Source: Planctomycetota bacterium
GTDB taxonomy: Bacteria; Planctomycetota; UBA8108; SXIK01
Assembly (NCBI GenBank): GCA_965223265.1
Contig: OZ244999.1
Coordinates: forward strand, 5,184,001 to 5,248,000
Length of the DNA: 64,000 nucleotides
Direction of reading: 5' to 3'
This document shows, piece after piece, positions 12,302 through 16,900 of the stretch. Below the pieces are notes generated by a model that was not told the origin of the DNA, made no database searches, and saw only the letters and a program-made list of their open reading frames with translations. Both the position numbers and the translations under genes were made by a program. Within the stretch, counting starts at the first letter, position 1. Each line of letters opens with the position of its first letter.

Positions 12302-12378
12302 CACTTTTTTCGACAATGCTTCGCACCGAAGACCAGGTCATTCGCGAGTTACGGCCTCACAAGCTGGAGAAATCCTCG

Positions 12379-13455
12379 ATGACACTACGTTTCATGACGT
12401 CGCCGATCGCAGTTGCCAGCGTACTCTGCGCCTGCGTTTCAATCCTCGGCGCCGACACCAAACCGCGAGCCAGTGGCACGAAGGCGAAAAAGCCTGTCGA
12501 TCCGATCGTCAAGCCTGGCCTCGAGCTGCGCCAGGCTAGGAAGTTTGATGCCGCCGTCGACGCCCTTCAAGCGGCACTCGATAGAGACCTCGACGACGAG
12601 AGACGCGCACTCGTGCTGTTCGAACTCGGCCAAACGCATTACCTGAGGGCTCAGCACTCCAAGGACCTCAATCTCTCGCCCGAAGACGCCGCCGCCGCTC
12701 GCAATCAAGCGCTGACAACGTTCGAGCAGGTTTTCCGCAGACTGCCGCAGACTGCGAAAGCCGGCACGTCACGCTATATGGCGGGTTCGACCTACTTACT
12801 CATGGAAAAGTACGATGAGGCCCTGAGCTCATACCTCGCCGCGTACCGCGAGTATCCGAAATATGAAGCCCGCTCGCGCGCGCTTTTGCGTGCCGGCGTG
12901 ACGCTGGCAGGGCTCGACCGACCGGCGGAGGCACGACGGATGTACCAGCGGGTCATACGTGAGTTTCCGCAGCGGAAATTCGACGTGCGCAAAGCGCGCA
13001 GCTACACCCAGCAGATCGACATCGTGGGTAGACCAGCGCTCAACTTGACGCCGGCAACTTGGCAGAACGGAGTGGTCGACGGCAGCGCGGGGCTGAAGAC
13101 ATTTGATGGGGAAGTCGTGGGGGTCGTGTTCCTCGCCACCTGGTGCACCAGCTGCAGCAAGGCGCTTCCCCAGCTGCGCGGTGTGATGGAACGCTGGACA
13201 GATGCCGGAATCGTCTTTCTGGGCGTTCTGAATCCTAAGGACCCCAAGAGCACGATGCCGCCTCGCGCCTATGTGGAGAAGTCTCGTCTCGATTTCGTCG
13301 ACATCGGCTTCATCGAGAATCAGCGAGTGTGGAACGCCTACCGCGCGCAAAGCCTGCCGGCAGTAGCGCTGATCGACCGCCGAGGCACAGTGCGCTGGCG
13401 AGGCCACCCAGTTTTCTTTCCAGTCCCCCTGGCGACCAAGCTCCTAACGGAGTGA
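12379..13455 (+). CDS. Exported TPR-repeat plus TlpA/thioredoxin-like disulfide oxidoreductase
   Basis: GGAG RBS before ATG 12379; signal-like N-terminus; BamD/YfiO-like TPRs; FLATWCTSC CxxC; LPAVALIDRRGTVRW cis-Pro motif. Confidence 0.8.
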   Translation: MTLRFMTSPIAVASVLCACVSILGADTKPRASGTKAKKPVDPIVKPGLELRQARKFDAAVDALQAALDRDLDDERRALVLFELGQTHYLRAQHSKDLNLSPEDAAAARNQALTTFEQVFRRLPQTAKAGTSRYMAGSTYLLMEKYDEALSSYLAAYREYPKYEARSRALLRAGVTLAGLDRPAEARRMYQRVIREFPQRKFDVRKARSYTQQIDIVGRPALNLTPATWQNGVVDGSAGLKTFDGEVVGVVFLATWCTSCSKALPQLRGVMERWTDAGIVFLGVLNPKDPKSTMPPRAYVEKSRLDFVDIGFIENQRVWNAYRAQSLPAVALIDRRGTVRWRGHPVFFPVPLATKLLTE

Positions 13456-13582
13456 GATGATCCGCAGATGGTTCGCAAAAAAGTGTCAGGTTTCTGGGCG
13501 CTGGGCAGATGGCGCAACCGGCACGTGAAACCTAAGATAATTATATACATAGGTTTATAGCAAACTCTATGTATTGAGGGAG

Positions 13583-13598
13583 TGGCATGCGGGTTGCT
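13583..13598 (+). promoter_or_regulatory. sigma54 (RpoN) -24/-12 promoter
   Basis: TGGCATGCGGGTTGCT has GG-N10-GC spacing and differs by one base from TGGCAC-N5-TTGCW. It follows an AT-rich tract with the inverted repeat AAACCTA/TAGGTTT (13528-13556). Confidence 0.75.
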
Positions 13599-13608
13599 TT
13601 ATTGACCA

Positions 13609-13732
13609 CTGAGACCCAAAACCCTAACCCAACCCCCTCCCTCAATTGCATCCTCGACCCCTTCGAGGATCCCTCCAACCAAGGGCACCGGCTGGCCGCG
13701 AAAGCCACCCAGCCGTGCCCTTCGTGTCTTTC
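13609..13732 (+). ncRNA. Candidate sigma54-dependent C-rich small RNA or leader RNA
   Basis: Begins at the predicted +1 of the sigma54 site. C-rich tracts with two CCCTCC; hairpin ATCCTCGA-ccccT-TCGAGGAT (13650-13670); terminal 14-bp stem (13681-13722). Confidence 0.5.
13681..13732 (+). terminator. Putative intrinsic terminator/attenuator hairpin
   Basis: AAGGGCAC(C)GGCTGG pairs with CCAGCCGTGCCCTT; weak U-tract (CGTGTCTTTCT). Confidence 0.55.
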
Positions 13733-13954
13733 TGGGGCGGGGTGACGCAGGCGGTGGTTGAGATTCGTTCGTGCGTTTCAGCTTTCGGCTCGAAGCCTTT
13801 TGAGCGCCGAAGGTGGAGAAAAAACGACTCGCACTACCCAACAACGCGGCGGAACGGTCCAACTGCGGTTAGACTCGAGTTCGCTCGAGTTGACCTCACC
13901 GCCGGGAGCGCTTCAATGCCCGATCACCCCTCGACCAACGCAAAGCGTCGGCCC

Positions 13955-16900
13955 ATGTTGCGCGCGGCGCTTTTCCTCTCCACGCTTCTCGTCAGTGGAA
14001 CAACACCACTGATGGCACTGCGCATCACCGAGGTGTTCTACCACCCGGCCGCGACCGAGGATCCGCAGCAGATCCTGGAGTTCGTCGAGCTCTTCAATGA
14101 CTCCTCGGTCGGGGTCGACCTGGGCGGTGCCTACTTCAGTAGCGGAATCGATTTCGTTTTCCCCGAAGGCACGTTTCTTTCGGCCCAGTCCTACCTCGTG
14201 GTTTGCCGCGATGCTGAGGCTGTCGGACGTCGGTATGGCATCGACAATGTGATCGGCAACTTCGCGCGGCGGTTGAGTGACGGCGGCGAACGCCTCGAGG
14301 TGCTGACCCACGCTGGCGCGCCGCTGGCTTCGATTCGCTACCGAGACCGCGGCGACTGGCCCGTAGCGCCCGACGGCGCTGGCTACAGCCTCTCACTGCG
14401 GCGACCGCACAGCGATGGCCAGCGCGTCTCCGACTGGGCGGTCAGTCGGGAGGTGGGCGGCACTCCAGGCGAAGAGAACTTTCCGCCGACAGAAACCATC
14501 GACACCGTCCTGATTGCGGCCAACGGTCCGGACGCTCACTGGCTCCTGCGCAAGGGGCGCGATCCCGAGAGCGGCCGGCCCGCAGAGTTTTCGAATCCGC
14601 CCGACGCGTGGTATCAGCTGGATTTCGACGCGTCGCAATGGGAAGCGGTTGAGGCTCCCGTCGGCTACAACGCGCCGGGCATAGCGACGGAACTGAACGA
14701 CATGCGCCGTCAGTATCTCGCCTTCGCACTGCGTCGTGAGTTCGAGTTGACGCCGGAGGCAATCGACGAAGCGGAGCGACTCGTGCTCTCATTGCGTGTC
14801 GACGACGGGGCTGTCGCGTATGTCAACGGCGAGACAGTCGCAACGTTCAATCTCGATCTCGCCCCCGGAGAGGTCGTCAGCGCGACCACGCGGGCCCGCG
14901 TCGCTCGCAATATGGAGGACGGAGAGATCACGTTCGAACTCCCCCGGGAGCTCTTCCGCGCCGGTGTCAATGTCGTCGGTGTGCAAGTCCACAACGCCGG
15001 AGCTGGCTCCGACGACGCTGGCGTTTCGGTCTCGCTGGTCTCGCATCGCCAGCCCGACTCTGAGCCGCCTGCGGCCGTCGCGATCAACGAGGTCATCGTT
15101 GCAGCGACTGATTCCCAGCGACGAGTCGAGCTCATGAATCTTACGTCGGTCCCGGTGGATCTGTCCGGCTATGAGCTCTCGGACGACCCAGGAGGGTCGA
15201 CAGGCTTTCGTTTTGCGGCCGGAACGACAATCGCGGCCAACGGATTCCTGACGCTGACCGAGACCGAGCTCGGATTCGAGCTCGGTGAAGATCGGATCCG
15301 CCTCTTCCTACACGACGCCACCGGGCGCCTTGTCGACGCGATGCAGCAGGATGGCGCGCCAACCACTGCACCGTCTCAGAGTCACGCGCGGTTTCCCGAT
15401 GGCGTTGGCGGCTGGTGGGTTTCCACCCAACCGACACCCAATGAGGCAAATCGCGTCGATCTTGAGCGCAGCGTCGTCATCAATGAGATCATGTTCCACC
15501 CGCGTCAGATCGACCAAAACGGTCAACTGATTCAAGACACATCGTTTGCAGAGTACATCGAACTGCTCAACGTCTCGGATCGCCGCGTCAGCCTGGACGG
15601 CTTTCGTTTCGACGCTGGAATCCAGTTTGCATTCGGAGCTGAACACGAGATGGCTCCAGGCGAATATCTCGTCGTCGCGCGGCGACCCGAATGGGTTCGA
15701 CAAACATATCAGCTCACACCGCAGCAAGTCGTCGGACCACCGAGCGACGCGTCCGCAGAGGAGATAGAGCGCTTCGGGCGTCTGAGCAATCGTGGTGAGG
15801 CGCTGCGTCTCGTCGATCCCTTCGGCAACACGGTCGACGAGGTCAGCTACGCCGACGAGGGCGACTGGGACGAATTCGCTGACCACGGTGGATCGAGCCT
15901 GGAGCTCATCGACCCGCTGCACGACAATTCGTTCCCTCACGCCTGGACGGCAAGCGACGAGAGCGCAGGGGCGAGCTGGACGGAAATCGATTACACGGCG
16001 CCCCTCACGTTCCCGAGCCCAGGACCACCGGAGTTCGAACTCCACCTCTATCTCATCGCGCGCGGCGAGTGTCTCATCGATGCGGTCTCAGTCGTTGCGG
16101 ACGACGGAGAAGAGCTCGTACCGAACGGCAGTTTCGAAGGGGACGACGATTCGCCAGAAGTCGGCACGGGCACAGAACCGTGGCGCCTTTGGGGTACGCA
16201 CGATGCTTCGTTCCGCACCACGCAAGAGTCGAGCGAGGGAAGTGCCAGTTTGCATCTTGTCGCGCTCGGCTCGGGGAACAACAAGGCGAATCGACTCGAG
16301 GTCGATCTGCCAACGGTCGAAGGCGCCAGTCAGGTGCGAATACGCTTAGCAGCGCGCTGGCTCGCCGGGTCGAACATGCTGCACATCAGCGGTCACAACA
16401 ACGCCTACGGCCGCACGGTTGCGCTTTCGCTGCCGCCGCGCATGGGGACGCCTGGCAGGGAGAATCGAGCGACGCGGCAGCTGCTCGACCGCCGTGGTGA
16501 CACGAACCTAGGTCCCGTCGTCAAAGACGTCCGGCACGACCCTGCCGTACCCAACGCGGGGAGTCAAATCGCCGTCACCGCGCACGTAGTGGACGGAGAT
16601 GGAATCGATCGTGTCGAACTCGTCTACACGATCGACGGGACGGAGACGCCGGCGCGTTTGCCAATGCTCGACGACGGTGCGAACCGAGACGGTGTGGCGG
16701 GCGACGGGATATTCGGGGTGATCATCGGATCGCTACAAGACAACACGATCGTCGACTTTTGGATCGAGACAGAAGACTCGGCGCGTGCCGTCCACGCCTA
16801 CCCGTGGAACGCACCACAGCGAACGCTCAATTTCATCGTCGCACCGCCGCTAGAAAGTAGCGTTTTGCGCTACCGATTGGTGATGAACCAAGCCAGTCGC

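Follow-up and report, generated by a model that had tools for sequence, protein, structure and literature searches.

A predicted sigma-54-dependent small RNA gene, conserved in one order of Planctomycetota, with an invariant C/A-rich 5' end

The DNA considered here is a 64-kb stretch (the window) of a Planctomycetota bacterium genome that is assembled as a single contig of 9.18 Mb and estimated to be 91.7% complete (G000 among the genomes compared below), and our subject is a predicted small RNA (sRNA) gene in its 460-nt intergenic region between a TPR/AhpC-like gene and a gene whose product has lamin-tail (LTD), CotH and dockerin domains. A previous sequence-only reading of this region had described a sigma-54 promoter followed by a C-rich transcript with anti-Shine-Dalgarno character, and all of the features it listed are present within 1-2 bases: the inverted repeat AAACCTA (13528-13534) and TAGGTTT (13550-13556) in an AT-rich patch, the near-consensus -24/-12 element, two CCCTCC tracts (13635-13640 and 13671-13676), a perfect 8-bp hairpin with a CCCCT loop (stems 13650-13657 and 13663-13670), a 14-bp terminal stem (which is 8 + 6 bp with one bulged C), and a next plausible start codon about 200 nt past that stem (the in-frame ATG of the large downstream open reading frame (ORF), 194 nt past it). 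The span it assigned was too short at both ends, since it missed an upstream dyad and a G-run (13734-13737) at the 3' end; the whole unit occupies 13484-13737, and its parts are listed in Table 1. We take the earlier observation to be real, and it is chiefly conservation in other genomes that appears to raise it above chance.

Table 1. Positions of the predicted sRNA unit, its parts and its neighbouring genes in the window.
Feature	Position	Strand	Basis or detail
TPR + AhpC/TSA-like (thioredoxin-fold) gene	12316-13455	+	Upstream neighbour
Upstream dyad TGTCAGGTTTCTGGGCG, right half degenerate	13484-13500	+	99 bp before the first base of the promoter
AT-rich patch with inverted repeats AAACCTA/TAGGTTT and ATACATAG/CTATGTAT	13528-13574	.	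Repeat search
Sigma-54 promoter TGGCAT-GCGGG-TTGCT (TGGCATGCGGGTTGCT)	13583-13598	+	-24 GG at 13584-13585; -12 GC at 13596-13597
Predicted sRNA, ~115-130 nt	13609-13737	+	Predicted ends; BLAST conservation and folding
G-poor unstructured 5' block GAGACCCAAAACCCTAACCCAACC	13611-13634	+	Invariant columns in alignment
First CCCTCC(CTC) tract, anti-Shine-Dalgarno-like	13635-13643	+	Equals family CUCC motif near RNA position 29
Hairpin 1, 8-bp stem ATCCTCGA/TCGAGGAT, loop CCCCT	13650-13670	+	Repeats and folding
Second CCCTCC tract, single-stranded, between both hairpins	13671-13676	+	Sequence, folding
Terminal GC-rich hairpin, 8 + 6 bp, one bulged C	13681-13722	+	Folding, inverted repeats
Tail CGTGTCTTTCT then GGGG	13723-13737	+	Alignment
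LTD/CotH/dockerin gene, 1538 aa (lamin-tail, CotH, dockerin domains)	In-frame ATG at 13916	+	Downstream neighbour

The promoter has the GG at -24 and the GC at -12 with the fixed 10-nt spacing by which sigma-54 promoters are recognized (TGGCAC-N5-TTGCW), and TGGCATGCGGGTTGCT is the sole match to the pattern TGGCAY-N5-TTGCW in the window, where 0.06 matches are expected and 6 of 100 shuffled versions contain at least one. The entire 9.18-Mb genome has 24 such matches, 14 of them intergenic according to crude gene calls, and among these 14 the sRNA promoter alone precedes C-rich sequence that lacks an obvious reading frame. The genome-wide count is inflated by four identical sigma-54-like motifs (TGGCATAGGCCTTGCT, at 1896430, 3424194, 3517329 and 5913250) that lie inside, and antisense to, a repeated ~1.3-kb ORF which is probably an insertion-sequence gene. 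The rpoN gene that such a promoter needs, and whose presence the earlier reading had expected, is found twice in G000 (two genes with Sigma54_DBD), and the activator domain Sigma54_activat has 41 matches there, 33 of them at E < 1e-35. Several of the strong activator domains are in ORFs of 1600-2000 aa.

A BLAST comparison of the 460-nt intergenic region with 40 related genomes found 74% identity with the closest other genus (G001) over exactly 13583-13737 and nowhere else in the region; shorter matches that cover the promoter and the first ~40 nt of the RNA were found in three further genomes, and all of these loci share the same layout. A covariance model of the promoter and 5' end, built from sequence only with 6 sequences (R1), located the unit in 20 of the 21 genomes of the window's order, and a model of the same kind built from 23 sequences (R3) located it in all 21, at a total of 28 loci. 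The number of copies per genome is 1-4, with four in G005 and two each in G014, G016, G017 and G018 (both G018 copies are at contig ends, and they may represent a single locus or strain variants); many of the order's genomes are incomplete. Outside the order, none of 38 genomes from other orders of the class has a match to R3. High scores in a 151-genome sample of the phylum came from G000 and G005 alone; two weak matches (E ~1e-3) in the sample are ordinary sigma-54 promoters that precede coding sequence, which in G134 is prepilin-like. Both R1 and R3 were trained on sequences of this order, and they could overlook more divergent relatives elsewhere. A scan of 185,579 species genomes with an exact pattern gave 12 loci, of which five are in Planctomycetota/Planctomycetia records and seven are in unrelated phyla, the latter being about the number expected by chance. 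The G134 genome, from another Planctomycetota family, has near-consensus sigma-54 promoters at two loci (L075 and L077) that lie ~45 nt before prepilin-like genes (MDKKGFTLIELMIVVAII...), each then with a GGAG site.

Rfam 15 contains no family that matches the 64-kb window at gathering scores (Qrr, GlmY/GlmZ, RsaE and CrcZ included), and at E values up to 10 the interval 13400-14000 has only four chance-level matches (CRISPR-DR20, two miRNA models and SNORD23). The CRISPR-DR20 match (13928-13964, at the start of the LTD/CotH ORF) scores 20.6 bits against a gathering score of 42, with E 0.12 and no repeat array, and we take it as chance.

Conservation of the promoter is very strong, as the sequence-only reading had expected of homologous loci: GG-N10-GC is kept at all 28 family loci, and the GG and TGC are invariant in the 23 loci that were aligned. 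Upstream of it, the dyad motif TGTCMG-N5-CTGRCA is present at 25 of the 28 loci, and in 23 of these it starts at a distance of 98-101 bp from the promoter; of the three exceptions, two are truncated by a contig end, and the third (G003) is without the dyad. In sigma-54 systems an enhancer-bound activator contacts the closed complex by DNA looping, and transcription starts ~12 nt after the GC. The position of the dyad fits the range of sigma-54 activator sites (~80-150 bp from the promoter), and from this position and its conservation the dyad is presumed to be a candidate enhancer-binding-protein site. An nhmmer search for a second copy of the dyad in G000 gave only matches with E values of 0.85-3.9, none of which has a promoter downstream. 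No activator gene lies near the sRNA gene within the window, and in G001, G004, G005, G007 and G019 more than 50 kb separates the sRNA gene from the nearest listed bacterial enhancer-binding protein (bEBP) gene of its contig.

Between dyad and promoter, the box GACTTAYGAC is found 31-33 bp upstream of the promoter at 23 of the 28 loci, and the window and G001 carry at this position an AT-rich patch with a CCTA...TAGG repeat (CCTAA...TTAGG in G001). The window's patch also holds a second inverted repeat, of 8 bp (13545-13552 and 13567-13574). We presume that patch and box are candidate sites for bending or for an accessory protein, and it is by inference only that we consider an IHF-like role for them. 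Near the promoter, ATTGAGGGAGTGG (13573-13585, which overlaps the -24 element) is complementary at 12 of 13 positions to CCCCTCCCTCAAT inside the RNA (13634-13646); its upstream half is outside the predicted transcript and its conservation in relatives was not seen, and the complementarity is probably chance.

From the usual spacing past the -12 GC we infer a 5' end at about 13608-13611, and the 3' end should lie between the tail of the terminal hairpin and the G-run. The most conserved element of the predicted RNA is its 5' block with the core AGACCCAA.ACCC, and not the CCCTCC tracts; the sequence-only reading had not singled this block out. The family form of the block is GAGACCCAAAACCC(U)AAC(A)CCC, which begins 11-15 nt after the -12 GC, and its core is invariant in all 24 aligned family RNAs, all of which also have three or four closely spaced ACCC units (ACCC-AAA-ACCC-(U)A-ACCC). 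In 16 of 18 minimum free energy (MFE) folds no base of the CCCAAAACCC core is paired, and the first 45 nt of the family RNAs contain only 2-7 G residues. Base-pairing sRNAs with multiple targets classically have an invariant, single-stranded 5' end, and the block is presumed to be a candidate base-pairing seed. A telomerase-template-like reading of CCCUAACCC was dropped, as the genome is without matching repeats.

The CUCC motif that follows the block is present at 26 of the 28 loci, usually at RNA position 28-29, and is extended to CCUCC at 20 of them; some family members carry CCUCCU or CACCUCCU, which are identical to the 3' tail of 16S rRNA. There is no conserved ORF, since an ATG or GTG lies within the first 60 nt at only 6 of the 28 loci. 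Two small ORFs were considered in the window and rejected: a minus-strand ORF (13541-13708) and a plus-strand ORF (13587-13745) are not conserved, and the latter begins inside the promoter. A CCUC.../...GAGG hairpin like hairpin 1 is found in family f1 and in genus g5 and is missing from other members, with no covariation seen, and hairpin 1 appears on this comparison to be an optional element. The terminal hairpin is presumed to be a terminator or a 3' stabilizer. The pyrimidine stretch after it, which ends in a G-run, is common to most family members; it is represented in the window by CGUGUCUUUCU (6 U in 11 nt) and in g5 by CCUCACAUCC. The G-run pairs with a C-run on the 5' side in 13 of 18 MFE folds, with a partner that varies, as many C-runs are available. 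At g5 loci (for example L030:1580-1650) the terminal hairpin has an A-rich 5' flank, CCAAAUAAA, whose complement on the opposite strand would be a U-tract, and a convergent gene ends ~20 nt past the RNA; judged by eye, this hairpin could terminate the convergent gene on the opposite strand, and a terminator scan calls none on either strand.

The folding energy of the window's RNA is unusually low. The segment 13609-13745 folds to -54.9 kcal/mol, compared with -39.6 +/- 3.6 in 200 dinucleotide-preserving shuffles (z = -4.27, none as stable), and 18 family RNAs folded singly have z values from -2.1 to -6.9 (the window sRNA having -4.66 in this set), with none of 200 shuffles as stable for 14 of them. 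A strong hairpin occupies the same place in every one of the 18, although its sequence differs between lineages. When RNAalifold was given a MAFFT alignment of all 24 RNAs it predicted no pairs, because unrelated hairpin sequences are misaligned there, and the subset of 13 f2 RNAs was therefore used. In this subset RNAalifold predicts the terminal hairpin and a 4-bp 3' mini-helix, with compensatory changes in 11 of 22 pairs, so that the stem covariation anticipated by the sequence-only reading is present. The f2 structure has 96.8% of its cells paired, compared with 90.8 +/- 0.8% in shuffles, and 11 pairs changed on both sides, compared with 3.0 +/- 1.2; none of 500 shuffles reaches either value, and slid controls have 0-2 such pairs. 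Most of the covariation is in the main hairpin (10 of 18 pairs), and that in the mini-helix is weak (1 of 4). A structure model (R2) aligned the window RNA only to hairpin 1 and also matched opposite-strand hairpins, and its alignment was not used for these counts.

Pairing in the terminal hairpin has thus been kept through compensatory changes, which points to selection at the level of RNA. This bears directly on whether the unit might be a DNA element and not an RNA gene, either the regulatory region of a neighbour or a small mobile sigma-54-promoter cassette, in which the apparent seed would be protein-binding or initially transcribed DNA. The varied genomic contexts of the unit, its 2-4 copies in some genomes and the fact that G000 and G001 have it in opposite orientations with respect to the TPR/AhpC-like neighbour would suit such an element; however, neither terminal repeats nor a transposase accompany the unit, the 5' block is strongly strand-asymmetric (G-poor) and directly follows the predicted start at 28 of 28 loci, and RNA-level selection on the hairpin would not be expected of it. 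We consider a DNA-level element to be quite improbable.

The genes around the 24 loci at which neighbours were compared address a second question, whether the RNA is the leader of a downstream gene. The nearest sizeable downstream ORF is convergent with the RNA at 16 of them, ending 13-118 nt after it, and this arrangement argues for a stand-alone sRNA gene and not a leader. Seven of the 16 convergent genes have Pfam matches (a sulfatase, a TPR/AhpC-like protein, an RlmI-like methyltransferase, two GlpD-like oxidoreductases, a cytochrome c and a xylose-isomerase-like barrel). A co-oriented ORF is downstream at three loci, the window locus (LTD/CotH), G005b (short-chain dehydrogenase) and G005c (an ORF without a Pfam family), and the other five loci are ambiguous or empty. 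Because the ten g5 loci are syntenic, we count them once, and the comparison is then between about seven independent convergent contexts and three co-oriented ones. The downstream neighbours belong to unrelated families with no conserved partner, and an LTD/CotH gene is downstream only at the window's own locus.

The sequence-only reading had left the choice open between an RpoN-dependent trans-acting sRNA and an attenuating leader of the LTD/CotH gene. Its first alternative is favoured by the convergent neighbours, and its second is rejected as a function of the family, because only the window locus has LTD/CotH downstream. A cis-acting 5' leader or attenuator, with the terminal hairpin as a conditional terminator, could still be imagined for the window itself, where the next gene is co-oriented, its start is 194 nt past the hairpin and no further promoter-like site was found, and where the C-rich tract has possible pairing partners in the G-run and GGGGCGGGG beyond the hairpin, as in anti-terminator or anti-sequester designs; G005b and G005c have co-oriented ORFs as well. 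However, the three co-oriented genes are unrelated to one another, the next gene is convergent at two thirds of the loci, and conservation stops at the G-run, so that we regard a leader as highly improbable, while read-through could still occur at the window locus. Of the features expected of a stand-alone sRNA gene, the unit has its own predicted promoter, a 3' hairpin (18 of 18 folded RNAs), no conserved ORF and no conserved cis partner. Taken together, these comparative data make it very probable that the unit is a genuine, independent sRNA gene of the sigma-54 type.

Two further observations concern the immediate surroundings. The TPR/AhpC-like gene adjoins the sRNA gene in both G000 (12316-13455) and G001 (L023:1687-2913), upstream and co-oriented in the former and downstream and convergent in the latter, and these opposite orientations suggest a local inversion or a relocation of the sRNA unit. 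The segment 13779-13801, which lies between the sRNA and the CotH gene, is a 23-24-nt look-alike of a ~120-nt genomic repeat that has 121 highly similar copies in G000 on both strands (found through the core TTTCGGCTCGAAGC; its consensus ends in ...CACTTTTTCAACAGGCTG).

What might such an RNA do? The 16S rRNA of G000 ends in ...CACCTCCTTTCT (in a longer reading ...GGATCACCTCCTTTCT), a canonical CCUCC tail, and GGAG shows an approximately 8-fold peak at -15 to -9 ahead of predicted gene starts (crude start calls); the organism therefore uses Shine-Dalgarno pairing, with which a CCUCC-bearing RNA could compete. Searches for Hfq and CsrA gave no match in this 91.7% complete genome. We propose that an enhancer-binding protein encoded elsewhere binds the conserved dyad, ~125 bp upstream of the start, that the DNA between dyad and promoter would bend at the AT-rich patch or the GACTTAYGAC box, and that the activator would then open the -24/-12 promoter, with transcription starting at about 13608-13611. 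The RNA so made would have an unstructured, nearly G-free 5' end with the core AGACCCAA.ACCC, then CUCC or CCUCC, which copies the 16S anti-Shine-Dalgarno, and then the terminal hairpin, all of which are conserved or structurally supported as described above. Without Hfq, its C-rich 5' part would pair in trans with several mRNAs, at their Shine-Dalgarno sites and at G/U-rich stretches, and so block ribosome binding. The invariant seed consists of C and A only, neither of which forms wobble pairs, and recognition would therefore be strict.

We give a probability of roughly 0.6 to this explanation as a whole, that is, a stand-alone regulatory RNA gene of ~115-130 nt that is transcribed by sigma-54 RNA polymerase and acts as proposed. 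For the base-pairing, translation-blocking mechanism itself the argument is circumstantial, since it rests on the CUCC motif at 26 of 28 loci, the 16S tail and the GGAG peak, and we propose it tentatively, at somewhat less than even odds.

Several results weigh against the proposal. The terminal hairpin has no canonical U-tail, and the terminator scan calls no plus-strand terminator in the window, nor any at the g5 locus L030; the CUCC of genus g5 is predicted to be paired inside the small hairpin 1; and 10 of the 21 order genomes that underlie the family counts are from one genus, so that the counts are not independent. Target searches, which used a home-made gene caller (5741 genes, 86% of the genome) and single-genome statistics, also failed to rise above their controls. 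In G000, the locus itself apart, there are 15 occurrences of 12-mers complementary to the seed, compared with ~27 estimated by chance; strong duplexes near predicted starts number 77 at -24 kcal/mol, compared with 116 for a reversed-sequence control; seed 7- to 10-mers are no commoner in translation-initiation windows than in the control; and 16-mers with at most 3 mismatches near starts gave 4 compared with 5, and 8 compared with 3, for the control. In five g5 genomes, 19-mers with at most 3 mismatches gave 4 non-self matches (5 in the control), and no extended complement was found beyond the locus. Because of the crude gene calls and single-genome statistics, these searches are low in power. 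Complementarity of the RNA to the rRNA operon is limited to 8-mers.

The target search led to three candidate genes (for a di-haem peroxidase, a WG-repeat protein and an LTD/CotH paralog), and a 10-nt seed match was noticed post hoc at the start of one LTD/CotH paralog. CotH domains have 55 matches in G000 (~53 genes, many of them of more than 1000 aa with lamin-tail domains). Seed matches of at least 8 nt in the interval -150 to +300 are found in 9 of 53 CotH genes and in 328 of 5688 others, and shuffled seeds average 4.45 in the CotH genes, with 5 of 200 reaching 9; this excess is a pointer and not evidence, because the gene family was chosen post hoc.

The lack of a target signal above control makes one other explanation a serious rival, namely that the sRNA titrates a protein or another RNA, its ACCC repeats and 16S-tail-like CCUCCU acting as a decoy for a factor that binds C-rich RNA or the anti-Shine-Dalgarno tail. 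The invariant block without a detectable complementary partner or enrichment of matches at predicted starts, the three or four ACCC units at short spacing in every aligned sequence, and the identity of CCUCCU or CACCUCCU with the 16S 3' tail in several members are all what a decoy might show, and sigma-54-dependent decoy sRNAs are known according to the available parts of the papers on GlmY (PMC4152352) and CrcZ/CrcY (PMC6292655). On the other hand, there is no known candidate binding protein (Hfq and CsrA were not found in G000), the failed target searches say little given their low power, and an invariant single-stranded 5' end is typical of RNAs that pair with many targets. We judge a decoy to be unlikely, and prefer base pairing in trans.

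A more far-reaching possibility is that this order has a dedicated signalling pathway of its own, with the unit as its output. One of the ~10-30 bEBPs per genome would have the sRNA promoter as its only or main target, and the RNA, as an anti-Shine-Dalgarno mimic with a wobble-free C/A seed, would be a chaperone-free master switch that silences mRNAs, perhaps including those of the much enlarged family of secreted LTD/CotH proteins (~53 paralogs in G000). This possibility is suggested by the lack of a second clear dyad copy in G000, by the LTD/CotH paralog that adjoins the sRNA gene and by the weak excess of seed matches in the paralogs, and we regard it as speculative and rather unlikely; if true, it would be an sRNA master switch comparable to LuxO-Qrr.

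No description of a regulatory sRNA in Planctomycetes was found in the literature searched, which did not extend to subscription-only papers and preprint supplements, and the words sRNA and non-coding are absent from the available parts of a 2025 survey of sigma-54 regulons that includes Planctomycetia (PMC12316311). The unit is a well-defined candidate, found in all 21 sampled genomes of the order with enhancer, box and promoter at fixed spacing and with an invariant seed, and it could be considered for addition to Rfam as a family. It could reveal riboregulation in a lineage apparently without Hfq and CsrA, and could identify the signal and activator of one branch of a very large sigma-54 network. 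The reach of such findings is limited by the facts that the lineage is known mostly from metagenome assemblies, that the sRNA is predicted, and that sigma-54-dependent sRNAs are already known elsewhere.

Four known systems bear comparison with this unit. CrcZ and CrcY of Pseudomonadaceae are described, in the part of the source available, as sigma-54-dependent sRNAs under CbrB (PMC6292655). They resemble the present RNA in being sigma-54-dependent and in having repeated short motifs. They differ from it in that they are ~400 nt long, compared with ~120 nt here, and their repeated A-rich motifs bind Hfq/Crc and so sequester protein, whereas Hfq was not found in G000. GlmY and GlmZ of Enterobacteriaceae have, in the sections available, a sigma-54 promoter, GlrR sites (TGTCN10GACA) and, between them, IHF sites that are needed for activity (PMC3045617). 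The best dyad copies here are TGTC-N9-GACA, and a second box lies where IHF would be expected; however, the spacing is N9 and not N10, there is one dyad compared with three sites, by eye the GACTTAYGAC box does not fit the consensus for IHF (WATCARXXXXTTR), the RNAs are unrelated, and GlmY is a protein decoy. In Vibrio, LuxO and sigma-54 drive the four or five Qrr sRNAs (Qrr1-5), which act on ribosome-binding sites according to the portion of the source available (PMC13501541). Those are likewise short sigma-54 sRNAs, multicopy and under a dedicated enhancer-binding regulator, and here there are 1-4 copies, a fixed dyad and an invariant single-stranded region. Unlike them, the present RNA has no Rfam sequence or structure match and a different activator site, and it belongs to a different phylum. 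Qrr function is Hfq-dependent, and Hfq was not found in G000. The proposed mode of action appears to be closest to that of RsaE/RoxS of Firmicutes, in which unpaired C-rich motifs pair with G-rich or Shine-Dalgarno sequences and block initiation and for which Hfq is likely not required, as far as the available part of the source goes (PMC6158497); G000 likewise has no detectable Hfq. RsaE/RoxS differs in that there is no Rfam match here, the most conserved part here is the C/A-rich 5' end and not duplicated C-rich loops, and pairing is only proposed here. RsaE/RoxS are not known to be transcribed from sigma-54 promoters. Judged from its sequence, the RNA described here appears to be a new family of sigma-54-dependent sRNAs, one that lies outside the curated families and is of a kind already known elsewhere.

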